NCBI GenBank assembly: GCA_964561915.1
Contig: CAZLQR010000005.1
Location: 49,263 to 113,262 of the forward strand
From: an uncultured Gammaproteobacteria bacterium
Lineage (GTDB): Bacteria; Patescibacteriota; Microgenomatia; UBA1406; GWC2-37-13
DNA length: 64,000 bases
Direction of reading: 5' to 3'
The translations under genes were made by a program, and so were the position numbers. Positions 57,166 to 64,000 of the stretch are shown here, piece by piece. The notes under the pieces are model-generated. The model searched no databases, was not told the origin of the DNA, and saw only the letters and a list, made by a program, of their open reading frames with translations. Every line of letters begins with the position of its first letter. The stretch's first letter is position 1.

Positions 57166-57915
57166 TCAAGAAAGCTTTTTACCTTTTTGCCAATCAACGC
57201 ATGATAAAAACGGTTCGAATAAATCCTCTTCCGGAGAGATAATTACTTCCTGTATCTCTTGCTGAGTGGGATTTTTATCACTGAAGTCGACAAACGACAC
57301 TTCTGAGATAATACAGATCGGAGTGCTCTCCGAACCTTCGCCCATGGTAACAACTGCGGCAGCTGCAAGACCACCTGCAATATTTGCCTGTGTAACATTC
57401 AGATGCCTATCGAATAAATCTTTTGTACCCACATAATCTTTGAGTGGAGAAAACCCGCTGTATGCGAGAAATATACCGCTTGTTCCTCTTCGTAGCGGCT
57501 GACAGGTGCTGTCAGTAATAATGACGCCAACGTGTTTACACTTATAATTCTTACACAAGAACTCACGTATTTGATTCGCTGTCTTTTGAGCGTCGCAAGG
57601 CCACAAAATATAATAACCGTTTCCGTTTGATTCGTCGATTCCTGCAACTGGAATAAGTGTGTTATTGGTGATAGTAAAACTGAATCCATATTTGCTGATT
57701 TCTTTTGGAAGAAATAAATCGGCTTCTTTTCGAATAAGAGATTTTTTGTCTATCGAGTCAATTGGCACCACACTACCTTCGCAAATAGAAACTACCTTTG
57801 AGGTTATTACCACAATCGATTTTTCTGCAAGCTTTAGAATTGCTTTATCGAGAAGTTCGTAAATAGACGTAGTGTTAGGAGTAATCGCATGTGTTTTTAC
57901 CGGTGTGACTTTCAT
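57166..57915 (-). CDS. F420-0:gamma-glutamyl ligase (CofE)-like family protein
   Basis: VVITSKVVSICEG, AGIDESN, VGVIITDSTCQPLRRGTSGIFLAYSG, GGLAAAAVVTMGEGSE follow the PF01996 pattern. Confidence 0.65.
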   Translation of the reverse strand: MKVTPVKTHAITPNTTSIYELLDKAILKLAEKSIVVITSKVVSICEGSVVPIDSIDKKSLIRKEADLFLPKEISKYGFSFTITNNTLIPVAGIDESNGNGYYILWPCDAQKTANQIREFLCKNYKCKHVGVIITDSTCQPLRRGTSGIFLAYSGFSPLKDYVGTKDLFDRHLNVTQANIAGGLAAAAVVTMGEGSESTPICIISEVSFVDFSDKNPTQQEIQEVIISPEEDLFEPFLSCVDWQKGKKLS

Positions 57916-57929
57916 GGTAATGAACCGTG

Positions 57930-58003
57930 TCGGGGAGGCGGGACTTGAACCCGCGACCTCACGACCCCCAGCCGTGCATTCTAGCCAACTGAACTACTCC
58001 CCG
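57930..58003 (-). tRNA. tRNA-Pro (anticodon GGG)
   Basis: Manual cloverleaf: acceptor CGGGGAG/CTCCCCG, anticodon arm CACGG-CTGGGGG-TCGTG, T-loop TTCAAGT, discriminator A. CCA is not encoded. Confidence 0.9.
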
Positions 58004-58076
58004 TGAGATAGCTGTATTGTAGCATAACCATCTGTTATTGACCGCCCGATTGGTGTATAGTAGGTAACACTTCTTT

Positions 58077-59681
58077 ATGAATAAGTTGCCCCTGATTGAG
58101 AAAGCCGGATCGCAGGATATGTTCCGCCGCGCGCGGTGGAGCCATCATTCTATCGCCGTGTTCGCTCTTCTCATCTTGTTTCTTGTATTCTTCGTCACTG
58201 CACTGGTACGGCTGTTCCAGATCACAATCGTCAAAGGAGAATATTATTATCGATTGTCGGATGAGAATAGGATACGAGAGATTGTCATAGAGCCCCGGAG
58301 AGGTGATATCCTTGACCGAAACGGTGCCATAATCGCGACGTCCGAAGAGCCGATAGAGGTGAAAGAAAAGAAGCGGATTGCGTCGCGGCGTGTATACGCC
58401 GCGCCGGAAGCGACTGCCCATCTGGTCGGGTACCGCCAGACGGCAGACGCCCACGACCTGGACAATGATGCATGCCTTGACAAGCTCGTACTCGGAGACA
58501 AGACCGGCAAGAAAGGTGTGGAGAAAATTGCCGAATGCACATTGCGCGGTACGAAGGGGAAGAAGCTCATAGAGCTTGATGCCCACGGCAATGAATTGGA
58601 GACGCTCACCGTGATGCCGCCGGTAGACGGGCGTGCGGTGCAATTGAGCACGGATCTGGCAGTCCAGAAGAAGGCATTCGAATTGCTCAAGGACCAAAAG
58701 GGTGCGATTATCGCCTCCGTACCACAAACGGGGGAGATAATCGCACTGGCAAGCAATCCCGCTTTCGATCCGCAGGTTTTCGAGGACGGTGACAATAAAT
58801 CCACGCAAGAATATTTGACGCGGGATGACCATCCGCTCTTCAACCGTTCCAGCGAAGGGACGTATCCACCCGGATCATTGTTCAAACTCATTATTGCGAC
58901 CGGAGCGCTGGAAGACAAAACGATGGACGAGGAGACCGAGATCGAAGACACGGGCGAGATACAGGCTGGCCCCGTCACGTTCGGCAACTGGTATTACATT
59001 CAGTACGGCAGGAAAGACGAAGATGTAAACATCGTACAGGCGCTCCGTCGTTCAAACGATATCTATTTTTACAAAACCGGGGAAAAAATGGGCGTGGATG
59101 CGATCCGCCGGTGGGCGGATCGCTTCGGACTGGGCAGACCAAACGGATCGGATTTGGAACAAGCTGCCGGGACGATCCCTTCTCCATACTGGAAAGAGGA
59201 CCGTCTCGGCGAGAAGTGGTATCTCGGAGATACCTACAATCTCTCAATCGGTCAGGGGTATCTGCTTACGACGCCGCTGCAGATGCATCTGGCAGCAGCG
59301 GCGGTGACCAACGGCGGTGCGCTCTGCGCACCGCAACTTTTCAAAGACGGCAAAGCCCGATGTGCTTCGTTGCAGATATCCGCCGACACGATCGCCATCA
59401 TCAAAAAGGGTATGAAAGCCGCCTGCGAAACAGGCGGCACCGCCTGGCCGTTTTTTGATTTCACTGCGAAGGGCAAACGGATGGCCGTGGGATGCAAGAC
59501 GGGAACAGCCGAATCCCACGGCCCCACCCACGTCGCTCCTCACGCCTGGTTCACGGTGTTTGCACCGTTTGACAACCCGCAAATACAGATCACGGTCCTT
59601 GTCGAGAACGGCGGCCAGGGCAGCGATGTCGCCTCTCCCCTGGCCAAAGAACTCCTTGCCAGCTACTTGGGCGGCAAATGA
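58077..59681 (+). CDS. Class B penicillin-binding protein (PBP2/FtsI-type transpeptidase)
   Basis: N-terminal TM helix, PBP dimerisation domain, SxxK (SLFK), SxN (SND), KTG (KTGTA). Confidence 0.9.
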   Translation: MNKLPLIEKAGSQDMFRRARWSHHSIAVFALLILFLVFFVTALVRLFQITIVKGEYYYRLSDENRIREIVIEPRRGDILDRNGAIIATSEEPIEVKEKKRIASRRVYAAPEATAHLVGYRQTADAHDLDNDACLDKLVLGDKTGKKGVEKIAECTLRGTKGKKLIELDAHGNELETLTVMPPVDGRAVQLSTDLAVQKKAFELLKDQKGAIIASVPQTGEIIALASNPAFDPQVFEDGDNKSTQEYLTRDDHPLFNRSSEGTYPPGSLFKLIIATGALEDKTMDEETEIEDTGEIQAGPVTFGNWYYIQYGRKDEDVNIVQALRRSNDIYFYKTGEKMGVDAIRRWADRFGLGRPNGSDLEQAAGTIPSPYWKEDRLGEKWYLGDTYNLSIGQGYLLTTPLQMHLAAAAVTNGGALCAPQLFKDGKARCASLQISADTIAIIKKGMKAACETGGTAWPFFDFTAKGKRMAVGCKTGTAESHGPTHVAPHAWFTVFAPFDNPQIQITVLVENGGQGSDVASPLAKELLASYLGGK

Positions 59682-59721
59682 CATGCCTTTGCGGTAAAAT
59701 ATACTCTTGACCCGCTGACCC

Positions 59722-59779
59722 GCCCGAATAGTTCAGTGGTAAAACACCCCGCCGGTGGCGGGGAGGCACGGGTTCGATT
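59722..59779 (+). pseudogene. 5' portion (positions 1 to T-loop) of a tRNA-like gene, truncated
   Basis: GCCCGAA-TA-GTTCAGTGGTAAAAC-A-CCCCG-CCGGTGG-CGGGG-AGGC-ACGGG-TTCGATT, then unrelated sequence. It lacks the 3' T-stem and acceptor strand. Confidence 0.7.
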
Positions 59780-59787
59780 ATCAGAAT

Positions 59788-60039
59788 ATGCATTACGTAT
59801 ACATTATCCGGTCTGTATTAAACGGACATTTTTACACCGGATCAACTTCTGAGATTAACCGCAGAATGGTCGAACACAACAGCAATAACACTAAGTCGCT
59901 CAAAAACAAAGGCCCATTTGTGCTTGTCTATTCCGAATCGTACGAAAATAAACTGCAAGCGCATCGAAGAGAACAGACGATTAAATCATATAAAGGGGGG
60001 AATGCGTTCAAGCGACTTATCGGATTACAAATAAACTAA
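59788..60039 (+). CDS. Small GIY-YIG nuclease-domain protein (UPF0213/YhbQ-like)
   Basis: MHYVYIIRS..GHFYTGSTSEINRRMVEHN ... RREQTIKSYKGGNAFKRL carries the GIY..YIG, Arg and Glu core. The ATG is 8 nt after the tRNA break point. Confidence 0.8.
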   Translation: MHYVYIIRSVLNGHFYTGSTSEINRRMVEHNSNNTKSLKNKGPFVLVYSESYENKLQAHRREQTIKSYKGGNAFKRLIGLQIN

Positions 60040-60075
60040 AATAGAACGTATTTGTCAAAATAGTAGCGACAGAAT

Positions 60076-60146
60076 GCCCGGATAGTTCAGTGGTAAAACA
60101 AGCCCTTGGTAAGGGCTAGGCACGGGTTCGATTCCCGTTCCGGGCT
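60076..60146 (+). tRNA. tRNA-Thr (anticodon GGU)
   Basis: Manual cloverleaf: acceptor GCCCGGA/TCCGGGC, anticodon arm AGCCC-TTGGTAA-GGGCT, 4-nt variable loop, T-arm ACGGG-TTCGATT-CCCGT, discriminator T. Confidence 0.85.
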
Positions 60147-60168
60147 CACCGTCAGAAGTCACGTTACA

Positions 60169-60224
60169 TGGTAAAACACCCCGCCGGTGGCGGGGAGGCA
60201 CGGGTTCGATTCCCGTTCCGGGCT
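60169..60224 (+). pseudogene. 3' portion (D-loop to 3' end) of the same tRNA-like gene
   Basis: 60169-60211 is identical over 43 nt to 59737-59779. It continues with CCCGT-TCCGGGC-T (T-stem and acceptor 3' strand). No 5' acceptor strand lies upstream. Confidence 0.7.
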
Positions 60225-60236
60225 CATATCAACTGC

Positions 60237-60283
60237 TTGACTTTCTCCCCCGGGATGCTATACTGATGTTCGGATATCCGAAC
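60237..60283 (+). promoter_or_regulatory. mntR-mntH promoter with palindromic operator candidate
   Basis: TTGACT (60237-42), 16 nt, TATACT (60259-64). A perfect 16-bp palindrome GTTCGGAT/ATCCGAAC (60268-60283) lies between the -10 and the ATG at 60288. Confidence 0.55.
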
Positions 60284-60287
60284 CTTT

Positions 60288-60701
60288 ATGTCACCTCCCG
60301 ACTCGCTTACTCATACGCAGGAAGATTATCTCCGCGCAATTTACGTTTTGTATGAAAAGTCCGGAGGAGGAGTCAAATCGATCGACATCGCGAAGTATCT
60401 TAATTTGAACAGATCGTCGGTATCGGAACTCCTCCTCGAACTTCAAAATCGCACACTGATCAGTCATCAACGGTACGGAGGCGTTCAATTGACCCGCAGT
60501 GGTAAATCGCATGCGAAACGGCTCGTATTCAAGCACCGGCTCATCGAGGTCTTCCTCCACCAAACTCTCGGAAGACCAATTTCAAAAATTCACGAAGAAG
60601 CCCACAGGCTTGAACACGCATTCAGCGACGAGTCGATACGAGCATTATTTGTATATCTTGGCAAACCCCGGCTTGATCCCCACGGCAAACCGCTCAAATA
60701 A
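60288..60701 (+). CDS. mntR: DtxR/MntR-family metal-dependent repressor
   Basis: QEDYLRAIYVL, wHTH IAKYLNLNRSSVSELLLEL, metal-site helix HRLIEVFL ... EAHRLEH. Confidence 0.85.
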   Translation: MSPPDSLTHTQEDYLRAIYVLYEKSGGGVKSIDIAKYLNLNRSSVSELLLELQNRTLISHQRYGGVQLTRSGKSHAKRLVFKHRLIEVFLHQTLGRPISKIHEEAHRLEHAFSDESIRALFVYLGKPRLDPHGKPLK

Positions 60702-60706
60702 TCCTT

Positions 60707-62047
60707 ATGACACACGAACATTTTTTCGAATCCCTCGGTTGGAAACAGGAGAAGAAAGGCAAAAGCCTCGAAGAGGTGCACCGCTCGATACCGATTCCGA
60801 AAACTTTCTCATTCTGGCGCAAACTCCTGGCATTCGCCGGACCGGGTTTTCTTGTCGCTGTCGGATATATGGATCCGGGGAACTGGGCGACAGACCTGGC
60901 CGGCGGATCCCGATTCGGATATACACTTCTCTCAGTGATATTCCTGTCGAATCTCATGGCGATGCTCCTGCAGCATCTCTCGCTCAAGCTGGGGATCGTG
61001 ACGGGACGCGACTTGGCACAGGCGTGCCGAGACAACTACCACAAACCTGTCGCATTCATACTCTGGGTATTTGCGGAGATTGCGATTGCGGCATGCGACC
61101 TCGCAGAGGTCATCGGATCCGCAATCGCCCTCAATCTCCTGTTCGGGATTCCGCTCATCGTCGGTATTCTGATCACGGTACTTGATGTACTGCTCCTGCT
61201 CCTGCTGCAACACAAGGGATTCCGGTACCTGGAGGCGCTTGTCGTCACGCTTATTGTGACCATCATCGGGTGCTTCGGTTTGGAGATCTGGCTCTCACAG
61301 CCGGAGATCGTAGCACTCCTGAAGGGCCTCATCCCGTCTCCGGAGCTGGTCACTAACGGCGATATGCTCTACATCGCCGCAGGTATCCTCGGAGCGACGG
61401 TCATGCCGCACAATCTTTACCTGCATTCCGCCATCATCCAGACACGGGACTATGAAGAGACCGTGCCGGGCAAACGCGAAGCGATCAAGTTCGCGACCAT
61501 TGACTCGACATTCGCACTCTTCCTCGCATTCTTCGTCAATGCTGCTATCCTCGTCACCGCCGCTGCCGTATTTCACTTCAACGGCGTCGGCGAAGTCGCG
61601 GAGATCGAAGATGCATACAAGCTCCTCTCACCGCTTCTGGGTACGACGTTGGCAAGCACCGTATTTGCTCTGGCTCTACTCGCGTCCGGCCAAAACTCCA
61701 CCATTACTGGGACGCTCGCCGGACAAATCATCATGGAAGGGTTCATCAATATCCGACTCCGCCCATGGCTGCGCAGACTCATCACGCGCCTTATCGCGAT
61801 CGTGCCCGCCGTCATAGTCGTATACCTGTTTGGCAATTCCGGACTCAATCAGCTTCTCATCCTGAGCCAGGTCATCTTGAGTATGCAGCTCTCATTTGCC
61901 GTATTCCCGCTCGTGAACTTCACGAGCGATACGAAGAAGATGGGGCCGTTCATCAATCCTCCCTGGATGAAAATGACAGCTTATGGCATCGCGTTCATCA
62001 TCGCCGCCCTCAATGTCTGGCTCGTCGTGAACACATTCCTCGGGTGA
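60707..62047 (+). CDS. mntH: NRAMP-family divalent metal (Mn2+/Fe2+) transporter
   Basis: GPGFLVAVGYMDPGNWATDL and ATVMPHNLYLHS signatures, 11 TM helices. Confidence 0.92.
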   Translation: MTHEHFFESLGWKQEKKGKSLEEVHRSIPIPKTFSFWRKLLAFAGPGFLVAVGYMDPGNWATDLAGGSRFGYTLLSVIFLSNLMAMLLQHLSLKLGIVTGRDLAQACRDNYHKPVAFILWVFAEIAIAACDLAEVIGSAIALNLLFGIPLIVGILITVLDVLLLLLLQHKGFRYLEALVVTLIVTIIGCFGLEIWLSQPEIVALLKGLIPSPELVTNGDMLYIAAGILGATVMPHNLYLHSAIIQTRDYEETVPGKREAIKFATIDSTFALFLAFFVNAAILVTAAAVFHFNGVGEVAEIEDAYKLLSPLLGTTLASTVFALALLASGQNSTITGTLAGQIIMEGFINIRLRPWLRRLITRLIAIVPAVIVVYLFGNSGLNQLLILSQVILSMQLSFAVFPLVNFTSDTKKMGPFINPPWMKMTAYGIAFIIAALNVWLVVNTFLG

Positions 62048-62070
62048 CTTCTTTCGGGTACAATACCGGT

Positions 62071-63204
62071 ATGGTTCCGGTCGCATTCGCTGTAGTATTC
62101 TGGAAAGTCGCGGGTACATTTGCCGCCGCGTTGGCGCCACGTGTCCTGCCCTATCTCGGACACTTCTCGCACCCCAAAACTCTCACGCAATTTTCGTTCC
62201 CTCAGTGGATCGAGTCCTTCGCCAACTTCGACGGGATTTTTTACCTCCGCATTGCACACGACGGATATTCGCAGTATGAACAAGCTTTTTTCCCGCTCGT
62301 TCCGCTTCTCATCCGGGCGGCCGCACCGGTCTTCGGCGGCAATCTCCTCATTGCGGGACTCACACTCTCGTTTGTGTCATTCCTCACCGGAGCATATTAC
62401 TTGGTCCAACTGCTCCGTCTGCACGGCGTCAGGAATCCGATGACGATACTTGCGCTTTTACTGGTGTTCCCGACATCGTTTTTCTTCCACTCGCTCTATA
62501 CCGAGAGTCTGTTTTTCCTGCTTGCCGTCTTGACGTTTTATTTTCATCACAAAGGGTGGAAGAAGTATGCTGCTCTCACTGCCTCACTTGCCTCCGCAAC
62601 GCGGCTCGTGGGTGTATTCCTCGCAATCCCTTTTGTGGTAGATGCATTCAGGGCATTGAAGATGGAAAAAAGGGAAGTCAAATCCGCGATCCAAGCCCTC
62701 TTTGGGGCTTTGTTGAGCTCTGGCGGACTCATGATATATATGGTGTACCTCTGGCATACGACAGGCAATCCGCTCGCATTCGCGGATGCCCAGACGGCAT
62801 TCGGAGCGGGACGGTCCACATCGTTCGTCCCGCTCCCTCAGGTGTATTACCGGTACGGGAAAATCCTCCTGTCAAACGGAGCGAATTTCGCAACCGCGAT
62901 TTCTCTTCTTGAAGTGACGATTTTCTCGCTGGTATTCTTCACGATTCTGTACGACCTGTGGAAGAAGAGAAGTCAAGCCAACCCGTTCCTATCGCTCCAC
63001 CTATTTTCGCTCGCAAATATCCTGTTTCCGACTATCAGCGGCACGTTCCTGTCAATTCCACGATTCGCGCTCCTATCACTCTCGTTTTTCGTCATCCTGG
63101 GGAGTGTGAGGCGGCGGGTGCTATTGTGGGCACCCGCCGCCCTCTTCGCCATCCTCCACATTACCCTGCTCATGTATTTCGTCCAGGGTTACTTCGTCGC
63201 ATGA
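62071..63204 (+). CDS. PIG-V-like (GT-C) membrane mannosyltransferase-family protein
   Basis: Start at MVPVAFAVVF. The tracked ORF's upstream 102 codons overlap mntH out of frame. FANFDGIFYLRIAHDGYSQYEQAFFPLVPLLIR motif. Polytopic. Confidence 0.55.
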   Translation: MVPVAFAVVFWKVAGTFAAALAPRVLPYLGHFSHPKTLTQFSFPQWIESFANFDGIFYLRIAHDGYSQYEQAFFPLVPLLIRAAAPVFGGNLLIAGLTLSFVSFLTGAYYLVQLLRLHGVRNPMTILALLLVFPTSFFFHSLYTESLFFLLAVLTFYFHHKGWKKYAALTASLASATRLVGVFLAIPFVVDAFRALKMEKREVKSAIQALFGALLSSGGLMIYMVYLWHTTGNPLAFADAQTAFGAGRSTSFVPLPQVYYRYGKILLSNGANFATAISLLEVTIFSLVFFTILYDLWKKRSQANPFLSLHLFSLANILFPTISGTFLSIPRFALLSLSFFVILGSVRRRVLLWAPAALFAILHITLLMYFVQGYFVA

Positions 63205-63205
63205 A

Positions 63206-63739
63206 TTAACGCGTCGGGTCAATCAGTATCCAATTGTGAGATACATCTGATTCCGAACAGATATTGCGGTTGAAGCAGCAGGGTCTTCTCGTCCCTTTCT
63301 TGAGCTTATCGAGGGCGACTTCGATTCTTCGTTTGCGTGTTTCGGCATTCTTCGTGGATCTGATCCATCGGATCCAGTCCCATCGTGCATTCGGAGTCAC
63401 GTTTCTCCACATCGTGAACGCCTGCGGAGTTTGTCTCAGTTTTTCTCTCAAGTCAGCCGGCACTTCGGGCTCAATCCAATCATCCGTCGGCTCAATGACG
63501 ACCGTAACACTGTTTCCGGCATTCGCGCCTGTATTTTTCTGCATCGCACTGTCAATCCTGAACCAGTGGCTCCCTTTGCCGTCCGGCTCCAGTGTCGTCC
63601 TGAATCGGTGTCCATTGAGAGTACCCGTGACCATCGTCAATCCCCGTGAAGGCAGCTTCGCGCTTGCATCCTTGGGAATCCTCAAAACAAACCATGAACC
63701 GATCTTGGACGGTGTACCTTCGAATGTGATTTGCGCCAT
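63206..63739 (-). CDS. DUF1905 + YdeI/OmpD-associated family protein
   Basis: The N-terminus FVLRIPKDASAKLPSRGLTMVTGTLNGHRFRTTLEPDGKGSHW is DUF1905-like. The C-terminal part resembles YdeI (TPNARWDWIRWI). Confidence 0.7.
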   Translation of the reverse strand: MAQITFEGTPSKIGSWFVLRIPKDASAKLPSRGLTMVTGTLNGHRFRTTLEPDGKGSHWFRIDSAMQKNTGANAGNSVTVVIEPTDDWIEPEVPADLREKLRQTPQAFTMWRNVTPNARWDWIRWIRSTKNAETRKRRIEVALDKLKKGTRRPCCFNRNICSESDVSHNWILIDPTR

Positions 63740-63761
63740 GACTTGATGAGAAAAAATCGGG

Positions 63762-63834
63762 GGTGACTGACGGGATTTGAACCCGCAACATTCGCCTCCA
63801 CAGGGCGACGCTCTACCGTTGAGCTACAGTCACC
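63762..63834 (-). tRNA. tRNA-His (anticodon GUG) with encoded G-1
   Basis: Manual cloverleaf: G-1 + GTGACTG/CAGTCAC + discriminator C, anticodon arm TCGCC-CTGTGGA-GGCGA, T-loop TTCAAAT. Confidence 0.9.
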
Positions 63835-63865
63835 AGTTGTGCTATATTTTATCACACATACGACT

Positions 63866-64000
63866 ATGAAGCTCTTCAGGAAACTGTTCGTCCCGGTCCT
63901 CATCGTTGTCGGATTGTATTACGCCTATACGGAGTTCGGGTCGTCGATCCTCAACGATTTCTCTCCCCAGGCGCGCAAGTCCACGGACAATGTCCTGGGA
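63866..64000 (+). CDS. 5' end of a membrane-anchored protein, truncated by window end
   Basis: ATG at 63866. MKLFRKLFVPVLIVVGLYYAYTEF.. is open to the last base. Not in the ORF track because no stop lies within the window. Confidence 0.4.
   Translation, partial: MKLFRKLFVPVLIVVGLYYAYTEFGSSILNDFSPQARKSTDNVLG

Follow-up and report, generated by a model that had tools for sequence, protein, structure and literature searches.

The 64,000-nucleotide (nt) stretch of contig CAZLQR010000005.1 analysed here (the window) carries, after a PBP2 gene, a small open reading frame (ORF) for a GIY-YIG nuclease and an intact tRNA-Thr(GGU) gene, enclosed by two partial tRNA-Thr copies in which a GC-rich hairpin takes the place of the anticodon arm. 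This locus is firmly a member of a recurrent family of tRNA-embedded cassettes, each made of a GIY-YIG nuclease of about 80 amino acids (aa), one or two tRNA copies bearing the hairpin, and one intact gene for that tRNA. We consider it rather probable that the cassette is a homing-like selfish element riding on tRNA homology and tRNA transcription, by a mechanism of mobility that we infer. It would then be a free-standing, nuclease-driven selfish element of a known kind, with a real chance of representing a new class.

The family was surveyed in contigs of one genome per species, where 250 relatives were found, and locus counts refer to the best 80 of these 250. The 80 loci belong to Patescibacteria/Candidate Phyla Radiation (CPR), Bacteroidota, Ignavibacteria, Omnitrophota, Planctomycetes, Endomicrobia, and other phyla. 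A same-strand tRNA gene lies at most 70 nt from the ORF in 72 of them (upstream in 22, downstream in 50), and the ORF abuts or overlaps the tRNA in 34 of the 77 loci having one on the same strand. At least 10 isoacceptor types are involved, namely Thr, Ser (four anticodons), Gly (three), Pro (three), Tyr, His, Glu, Ala, Cys, and Phe. The opposite side of the ORF is usually occupied by a partial copy of the same tRNA with a GC hairpin, and such hairpin-substituted partial copies were seen for tRNA Thr, Gly, Ala, His, Glu, Pro, Ser, and Tyr. In L001 and L011, for instance, tRNA-Thr(GGU) is followed by an ORF starting from the tRNA 3' end and then by a partial tRNA-Thr with the arm CCCCGCCATGGCGGGG, while L013 is a tRNA-Ser(GGA) version of the cassette. 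Across the family, cassette size is roughly 350-430 bp, and truncated ORF remnants are also present among the loci. The earlier note on this DNA had proposed, as its own test, a search for further associations of GIY-YIG genes with tRNA fragments, and many were found.

In 19 of the 80 loci, the ORF is flanked by a hairpin at either end. In about 14 inspected loci, the hairpin bracket encloses the tRNA and the ORF in either order, at a spacing of 250-432 nt, and the direct repeats (31-58 nt) comprise the hairpin with its D- and T-arm flanks, as in the window. Moreover, in most loci the duplication either begins with tRNA position 1 or extends just to the 3' end of the tRNA, and only 0-5 nt of flank are shared.

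In the window, copy A (hairpin), the nuclease ORF, copy B (intact tRNA-Thr), and copy C (hairpin) follow each other on the plus strand (Table 1). Copy A is composed of GCCCGAATAGTTCAGTGGTAAAACA, CCCCGCCGGTGGCGGGG, and AGGCACGGGTTCGATT, in this order, and is truncated after TTCGATT in the T loop, 8 nt (ATCAGAAT) before the ATG at 59788. Copy C is composed of the D-loop remnant TGGTAAAACA, followed by CCCCGCCGGTGGCGGGG and AGGCACGGGTTCGATTCCCGTTCCGGGCTCA; it lacks the 5' acceptor strand and the 5' strand of the D stem, and is recognised by Rfam as a partial tRNA (model positions 10-63, 30.8 bits). Spacers of 36 and 21 nt separate the ORF from B and B from C, respectively. The two direct repeats agree at 43/43 nt and span gene positions 16-58, from the D loop to the T loop, with the foreign hairpin included. 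ARAGORN called neither A nor C as a tRNA and found only B; after in silico collapse of the repeats (59780-60211 removed, 432 bp), it called a tRNA-Thr(ggt) with one a.c acceptor mismatch. The 432-bp unit contains only the GIY-YIG ORF and the tRNA, and the neighbours of the cassette are PBP2, MntR, and Nramp genes. Sequence comparison, ARAGORN, and Rfam (67.8 bits for B) thereby bear out what the earlier note had described: exact 43-nt repeats, a left copy running from tRNA position 1 to the T loop and ending 8 nt before the ATG, a right copy running from the D loop to the 3' end, an intact tRNA-Thr(GGU) between two fragments that are not complete tRNAs, and a cloverleaf restored by repeat collapse with one acceptor mismatch. 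Its description of a small cassette splitting a tRNA-like gene, with the GIY-YIG protein as associated enzyme and no integrase, also holds.

Table 1. Features of the tRNA-Thr cassette locus in the window.
Feature	Position	Strand	Description
Candidate promoter	59678..59705	+	ATGACA-16-TATACT; consensus scan; within 40-nt PBP2-to-A spacer
Copy A	59722..59779	+	tRNA positions 1-25, hairpin for anticodon arm, variable loop, T stem 5' strand, T loop
Left 43-nt direct repeat	59737..59779	+	Identical to 60169-60211
Family hairpin 1	59747..59763	+	CCCCGCC-GGT-GGCGGGG; 7 bp, 3-nt loop; exactly replaces 17-nt anticodon arm
GIY-YIG nuclease ORF	59788..60039	+	83 aa, ATG start; Pfam PF01541
Upstream flank of B	60047..60075	+	Homology with the flanks preceding native tRNA-Thr genes in relatives (alignment against L103)
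Copy B, intact tRNA-Thr(GGU)	60076..60147	+	ARAGORN; Rfam 67.8 bits; sole complete copy at locus
Copy C	60169..60226	+	D-loop remnant, hairpin, complete T arm, 3' acceptor strand TCCGGGC + TCA
Right 43-nt direct repeat	60169..60211	+	Identical to 59737-59779
Family hairpin 2	60179..60195	+	Identical to hairpin 1

The hairpin is a conserved DNA element of the cassette, with the signature CCCGCC-N2-3-GGCGGG within tRNA copies. A strict form of the motif (CC[CG]GCC-N1-8-GGC[GC]GG) occurs at 1.70 per kb up to 150 nt from the ORFs versus 0.016 per kb more than 600 nt away, a difference of about 105-fold, and is found at most 150 nt from the ORF in 55/80 loci. The perfect CCCGCC…GGCGGG stem is present only twice in the 64-kb window, both times at the locus, and a dispersed repeat of the REP (repetitive extragenic palindromic) type was rejected, the hairpin being confined to the cassette. 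The inner stem never varies among 131 hairpin instances, covariation is seen at pair 7 (C:G 62, T:A 56; Fisher p 6e-29), and the loop has 2-3 nt in 118, with no sequence preference. Since the loop sequence is free, the GGT in the window loop coincides with the Thr anticodon by accident. The predicted fold of the arm in the window is a 7-bp stem with a 3-nt loop, as the earlier note had proposed for this odd arm; its other suggestion, an anticodon loop with C33, has to be abandoned, as this is the family hairpin, common to all tRNA types and with a free loop.

The place taken by the hairpin depends on the tRNA. Gene positions 26-42 (the anticodon arm) are replaced exactly in Thr, Gly, Ala, and His copies, positions about 10-26 (the D arm) in Pro copies, and positions 22-34 in Ser(GCT) copies; in Ser(GGA) copies, the hairpin is inserted inside the anticodon and is not an arm replacement. 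Copies A and C of the window differ from B at 10 positions over the 43 nt, and 10/10 lie within the 17-nt arm, with 26 identical flanking positions (p 1e-5); the arm was therefore replaced as a block, and did not drift. A target-site duplication from a staggered cut was rejected, since both repeats carry the foreign hairpin and so are not copies of the natural target. In L016 (1742-1825), copy C of a tRNA-Thr element shows a second, degenerate hairpin (GGATCCCGCTATAGGCGGGA) in the T loop after TTCGATT, at the tRNA position where window copy A breaks (between 59779 and 59780), and the element may favour the T loop as another site. On the minus strand of the window, the hairpin followed by TGTTTTACC (D-loop complement) scores as an intrinsic terminator, as does the natural anticodon arm of B, and by this score such a terminator could block antisense transcription. 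An intrinsic terminator on the plus strand was rejected, as no T run follows the hairpin and only the minus strand scores.

An inert one-off, produced by sloppy repair, by tRNA-gene decay, or by misassembly of repeated tRNA sequence, would be conceivable for a metagenome-assembled CPR source in which repeats can misassemble, and for fragments such as A and C that are not functional tRNAs. It conflicts with the family data: the architecture recurs across many independent assemblies, assemblers, and phyla, which excludes a one-off repair scar or artefact at the family level, and contradicts the sloppy repair event that the earlier note had considered. Furthermore, the hairpin is conserved in sequence while the nuclease has diverged to 45-60 % identity, and the confinement of all A/C-versus-B differences to the arm also speaks against decay or chance. 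We give this explanation hardly any chance.

The 83-aa protein matches the Pfam GIY-YIG family (PF01541) with an E value of 1.9e-16 and 60.5 bits (cutoff 22.6). Residues invariant in the family alignment include Y5, Y16, G18, R26, H30, and E62, besides K66, K69, and G70, and the window protein has 9/9 of the nine invariant family residues. Its C-terminal motif is IKSYKGGNAFKRLI, that of the subfamily being IKSYKGGNAFKKLI (KSYKGGNAFKK). A profile built from 43 homologues retrieved from the PDB the nuclear magnetic resonance (NMR) structures 1zg2 (BH0048, E 1.3e-13) and 1ywl (EF2693, 7.8e-10), followed by Slx1 (7.8e-5), and I-TevI weakly. Likewise, Foldseek on the AlphaFold (AF2) model (pLDDT 89) ranked 1zg2, 1ywl, At-HIGLE, and Slx1 above I-TevI. 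By profile and model, the protein is thus classified as a minimal bacterial GIY-YIG domain of the Slx1/UPF0213 type, a branch described previously (Dunin-Horkawicz et al., 2006; PMC1564403). All 83 aa lie inside the predicted catalytic fold, with no DNA-binding domain and no auxiliary domain.

A match to the NCBIfam model grpIintron_endo covers residues 3-40 only and stays below the cutoff (25.6 bits versus 56). PADLOC returned no match for the window nuclease, and PHROGs only generic N-terminal homing-endonuclease matches. A whole-library profile search yielded 6,787 clusters (50 % identity) at E<=1e-10; its top two matches (P0178 and P0179, 205-214 aa) have two tandem domains of the nuclease family and may be fused array copies. 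A group I intron in the tRNA gene was rejected, as the locus has no ribozyme core and the break in A lies in the T loop, not the anticodon loop; Rfam at E<=1 over 57500-64000 gave only tRNA matches and no intron ribozyme.

Regarding the host, the window PBP2 is at most 59 % identical to any other, and the nearest relatives are Microgenomates/Roizmanbacteria CPR bacteria, in which different states of the same site were found. Exact-sequence look-ups with the window proteins GIY-YIG, MntR, P0001, and PBP2 (P0058) returned no record. L107 (PBP2 55 %) is an empty PBP2-tRNA-Thr site, of the kind the earlier note had suggested looking for in relatives: PBP2 is followed by an intact same-strand tRNA-Thr(GGU) and an unrelated gene, with neither GIY-YIG ORF nor hairpin. 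In L103 and L104, the closest relatives (PBP2 59 %), tRNA-Pro(GGG) on the minus strand, PBP2, and a 34-nt spacer with a CGGTAAAATA box precede an intact tRNA-Thr(GGU) with A:U as acceptor pair 6:67 and with no hairpin copy upstream of it. Both contigs stop 13 nt after tRNA-Thr (L103:2307-2319, L104:2011-2023), at CAGTATGCATAA, a sequence resembling CAGAATATGCATTA at window positions 59782-59795, where the start codon of the nuclease lies; these contig ends may mark the beginning of a repeat or polymorphism, perhaps of an element. L105 has no tRNA at all after PBP2, and a metagenome scan with MntR gave only relatives of 36-44 % without usable flank, and no empty site from a close relative.

Four samples (L098-L101; PBP2 56 %, identical among the four) share the tRNA-Pro(GGG)/PBP2 synteny of the window, with tRNA-Pro on the minus strand, and carry the cassette directly after PBP2 on the opposite strand, in the order A (hairpin), B (tRNA-Thr), ORF, C (hairpin). 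In these Roizmanbacteria relatives, the cassette is therefore inverted and its internal order is other than in the window. In L098, A and C pair with each other (acceptor GCCCGGA/TCCGGGC, T stem GCGAG/CTCGC) and B is distinct (acceptor GCCTGGA/TCCAGGC, and GGGGG/CCCCC), so that A and C are two halves of one hairpin-tRNA and B is another gene copy. L100 (4490-4560) differs from L098, L099, and L101 by a 39-nt indel at the A/B junction and by a B 5' acceptor strand GCCCGGA, with a C4.A69 mismatch; with identical PBP2, it is a recombinant allele segregating in the population. As for the surroundings, tRNA-Pro(GGG) on the minus strand followed by PBP2 on the plus strand (window 57929-58003 and 58077-59681) is conserved across L098, L103, and L102, and mntR-mntH, downstream of the tRNA-Thr locus in the window, lies upstream of PBP2 in L102.

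These comparisons also indicate the origin of the window copies. The CGGTAAAATA motif of the candidate promoter stands at the same place after PBP2 in L103, which suggests that this is probably the native tRNA-Thr promoter, now reading into A, the GIY-YIG ORF, B, and C. Copy A occupies the native place behind this native-looking promoter, and the native tRNA-Thr of L103 has the same acceptor strand as copy A, GCCCGAA (A6), whereas B and C are of the G6:C67 type, as in L107, and C joins the downstream flank. The upstream flank of B has an AAAATA box 13 nt before the tRNA gene, at the same spacing as in native flanks, and the promoter scan made no call in this flank (60047-60075). The A6:C67 mismatch pointed out in the earlier note is probably not a sign of decay, since A6 is the native state of L103 (A6:U67); on the basis of this single nucleotide, the preferable interpretation is a junction of sequences that differ in origin.

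Several loci contain amplified versions. In L038 (1136-2490) and L073 (1380-2330), a unit of nuclease ORF and full-length hairpin-tRNA-Pro with replaced D arm is repeated three times, the copies being 99-100 % identical. ARAGORN miscalls these hairpin copies as tRNA-Pro, one in L090 as tRNA-Lys, and one in L081 as a tRNA of undetermined type. Full-length hairpin-tRNAs are present in L081 and in L026/L038/L073. In L053 (1080-1380) and L077 (1095-1395), three tandem units of ~100 nt (tRNA upstream flank plus 5' half with hairpin) precede an intact tRNA-Ser and the nuclease gene. Within the repeated tRNA/hairpin region, L081 (1820-1940) and L077 (1080-1094) contain runs of N (scaffold gaps or masked sequence), and such loci are evidently hard to assemble.

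The direct repeats around the cargo could suggest an integration system, and the earlier note had spoken of att-type scars. According to this explanation, a 432-bp circle of nuclease, tRNA, and one repeat would excise through the 43-nt repeats and re-integrate in a full-length hairpin-tRNA, the counterpart of attC for an integron cassette. The A-[cargo]-C arrangement with its direct repeat has indeed the topology of Campbell-type integration, the L098 copies A and C together make up a single self-consistent hairpin-tRNA unlike B, full-length hairpin-tRNAs that could serve as targets occur in the four loci named above, and the arrays resemble cassette arrays. No recombinase or integrase gene is found in or next to the cassette, however, and the repeat length varies between 31 and 58 nt, which also speaks against the att-type reading of the scars. 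Furthermore, about three quarters of the loci have a hairpin copy on one side only, and excision would take away the only intact tRNA. GIY-YIG enzymes hydrolyse DNA, and to our knowledge strand rejoining by them has not been described. We regard this explanation as quite unlikely.

For the homing-like selfish cassette, we propose that homologous recombination or the repair of double-strand breaks would carry it from one genome or allele to another, with conserved tRNA sequence providing the homology arms. Such arms would explain why the duplications usually start or end exactly at tRNA boundaries, and the short shared flank is what recombination of a donor cassette with a recipient tRNA gene would produce and a local staggered cut would not. 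The nearest relative of a nuclease sits at a tRNA of the same amino-acid type in 53/79 cases (21 % expected), and nuclease copies at different tRNAs of one genome are 41-54 % identical; both facts fit lineages tied to their target by homology. With copies merely this similar, recent intragenomic transposition between tRNA types was rejected.

The nuclease would act structure-specifically, nicking or cutting DNA stem-loops, which may be the arms of tRNA genes, its own hairpin, or both. This is proposed because the enzyme is of the Slx1 kind and because all replacement and insertion sites are stem-loops of the cloverleaf. The hairpin would act in cis, bounding the non-homologous block and serving as recognition site, as an arm substitute that the enzyme cannot cleave, or as both, because it is always at the block edge and is conserved in sequence despite the protein divergence. 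Expression of the nuclease is probably coupled to transcription of an essential tRNA and to its processing by RNase P/Z, because ORF and tRNA are closely packed and the ORF of the window lies downstream of the candidate tRNA promoter. Deletion between the repeats would leave a dead hairpin-tRNA together with loss of B, by which the element would be stabilised. As a conjecture, re-cutting of B and repair from the sister copy could generate the tandem arrays. The empty site in L107, the inverted and reordered copies, the chimeric acceptors, the arrays, the ORF remnants, and the L100 variant are what we take as signs of selfish behaviour.

Several points weigh against such an element. No cleavage activity, target, or movement has been observed, and the mechanism is wholly inferred. 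B keeps its natural arm, so that a nuclease cutting natural tRNA genes would cut its own locus, which classical homing endonucleases avoid; in addition, we know of no domain of 80 aa without a DNA-binding module that confers site specificity. The different-tRNA copies of one genome give no evidence of recent intragenomic jumps. No vector is evident either: the plasmid collection had no match to the family, the phage collection gave four weak matches (~41 % identity) without the C-terminal motif, and a scan of 2.9 million viral contigs with the family alignment found no relatives. The only clean empty site, L107, belongs to a distant relative (PBP2 55 %). Finally, the placement at tRNA-Thr beside PBP2 is shared by two lineages (PBP2 56 %) whose nucleases are, by eye, roughly as diverged, a match that is also compatible with long vertical inheritance.

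This last point leads to a vertically inherited, domesticated host module at tRNA loci, acting, for example, in transcript processing or tRNA-gene maintenance, whose partial copies would be old local duplications that gene conversion has kept similar. An intact, conserved ORF, the shared position in two Microgenomates lineages, and copies at different tRNAs that represent old lineages would suit it, as would the lack of phage or plasmid vectors. The ORF abutting the tRNA in so many loci suggests co-transcription and processing by RNase P/Z, and a reported fusion to TrmH suggests that bacterial Slx1 homologues may act on RNA (Dunin-Horkawicz et al., 2006; PMC1564403). A domesticated module fits poorly with the patchy distribution (the empty site in L107, the missing tRNA after PBP2 in L105), with the opposite orientation and internal order in related genomes, and with truncated ORFs and local amplifications. 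Moreover, the acceptors of A and B differ in the window, in L081, and in L098, pointing to a chimeric origin. This alternative is unlikely, and a homing-like selfish cassette remains the reading that we prefer.

Among known systems, the free-standing GIY-YIG homing endonuclease gene segB of the T4 tRNA gene cluster (PMC2330249) is comparable in its fold, in its location among tRNA genes without intron or intein, and in its presumed spread by break repair with co-conversion of flanks. SegB-type enzymes have a C-terminal DNA-binding region, whereas the cassette protein is a bare catalytic domain of 83 aa, Slx1/UPF0213-like, and it is on this domain architecture that the segB analogy of the earlier note fails. 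In addition, Seg genes are intergenic in phage genomes and their loci have no conserved hairpin, arm-substituted tRNA copy, or target duplication; the cassette family is chromosomal and is absent from the 2.9 million viral contigs. The best match in sequence and fold, with the same single-domain build, is UPF0213/COG2827 (BH0048 1zg2, EF2693 1ywl, Escherichia coli YhbQ; PMC1564403). These are viewed as repair or housekeeping proteins whose role is unknown, and the literature examined mentions no tRNA association, while the cassette subfamily has its own C-terminal motif and an almost obligatory tRNA and hairpin context.

As at the tRNA att sites of phages and integrative and conjugative elements (ICEs), tRNA-derived direct repeats flank the insert and a functional tRNA is preserved. 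The cassette differs in having no integrase, in a repeat formed by an internal tRNA segment plus foreign hairpin and not by the 3' end, and in carrying the functional tRNA as a complete gene of its own within the insert, with no reconstruction at attL. REP/RAYT and IS200/IS605 systems likewise join a small nuclease gene to flanking GC-rich palindromic hairpins that are probably the cis site, but their enzyme is of the HUH Y1 type and not GIY-YIG; REP sequences are also dispersed in hundreds of copies, and the cassette hairpin, with its two copies in 64 kb, is always inside a tRNA copy. In CPR rRNA genes, GIY-YIG ORFs have been reported within insertions that belong to neither the group I nor the group II introns (PMC11270868). 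By their description, they share the host group and an insertion point at the top or the base of a stem-loop within the gene of a stable RNA, and differ in affecting rRNA instead of tRNA genes, with no hairpin or duplication reported (PMC11270868). A GIY-YIG gene together with a hairpin-substituted tRNA copy was not found described in Rfam, among PADLOC systems, or in the open-access literature, and an earlier account elsewhere is possible; the tRNA-embedded GIY-YIG/hairpin cassette is apparently undescribed so far.

A bolder idea, which we put forward tentatively as possible, is that of a structure-guided gene drive of stable-RNA genes. An 80-aa Slx1-like nuclease would recognise a stem-loop of DNA or RNA and not a sequence, the hairpin would mark the ends of the mobile block, and replacement of an arm of the resident essential tRNA along with the supply of a working copy would render the host dependent ("cleave-and-rescue"). 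This would be a new class of minimal mobile element, perhaps including the GIY-YIG insertions of CPR rRNA genes.

In practical terms, the hairpin could be used as a flag by annotation pipelines, and the nuclease-hairpin pair is a candidate for a very small structure-specific tool. If the proposed reading is true, thousands of small GIY-YIG and hypothetical genes would be one family of selfish elements with a simple DNA signature, which would account for many of the tRNA fragments, odd tRNA calls, and tandem tRNA arrays of CPR, Bacteroidota, Ignavibacteria, and others. It would also give the bacterial Slx1/UPF0213 branch a candidate function, and would make testable how a nuclease without a DNA-binding domain ties itself to one class of targets.

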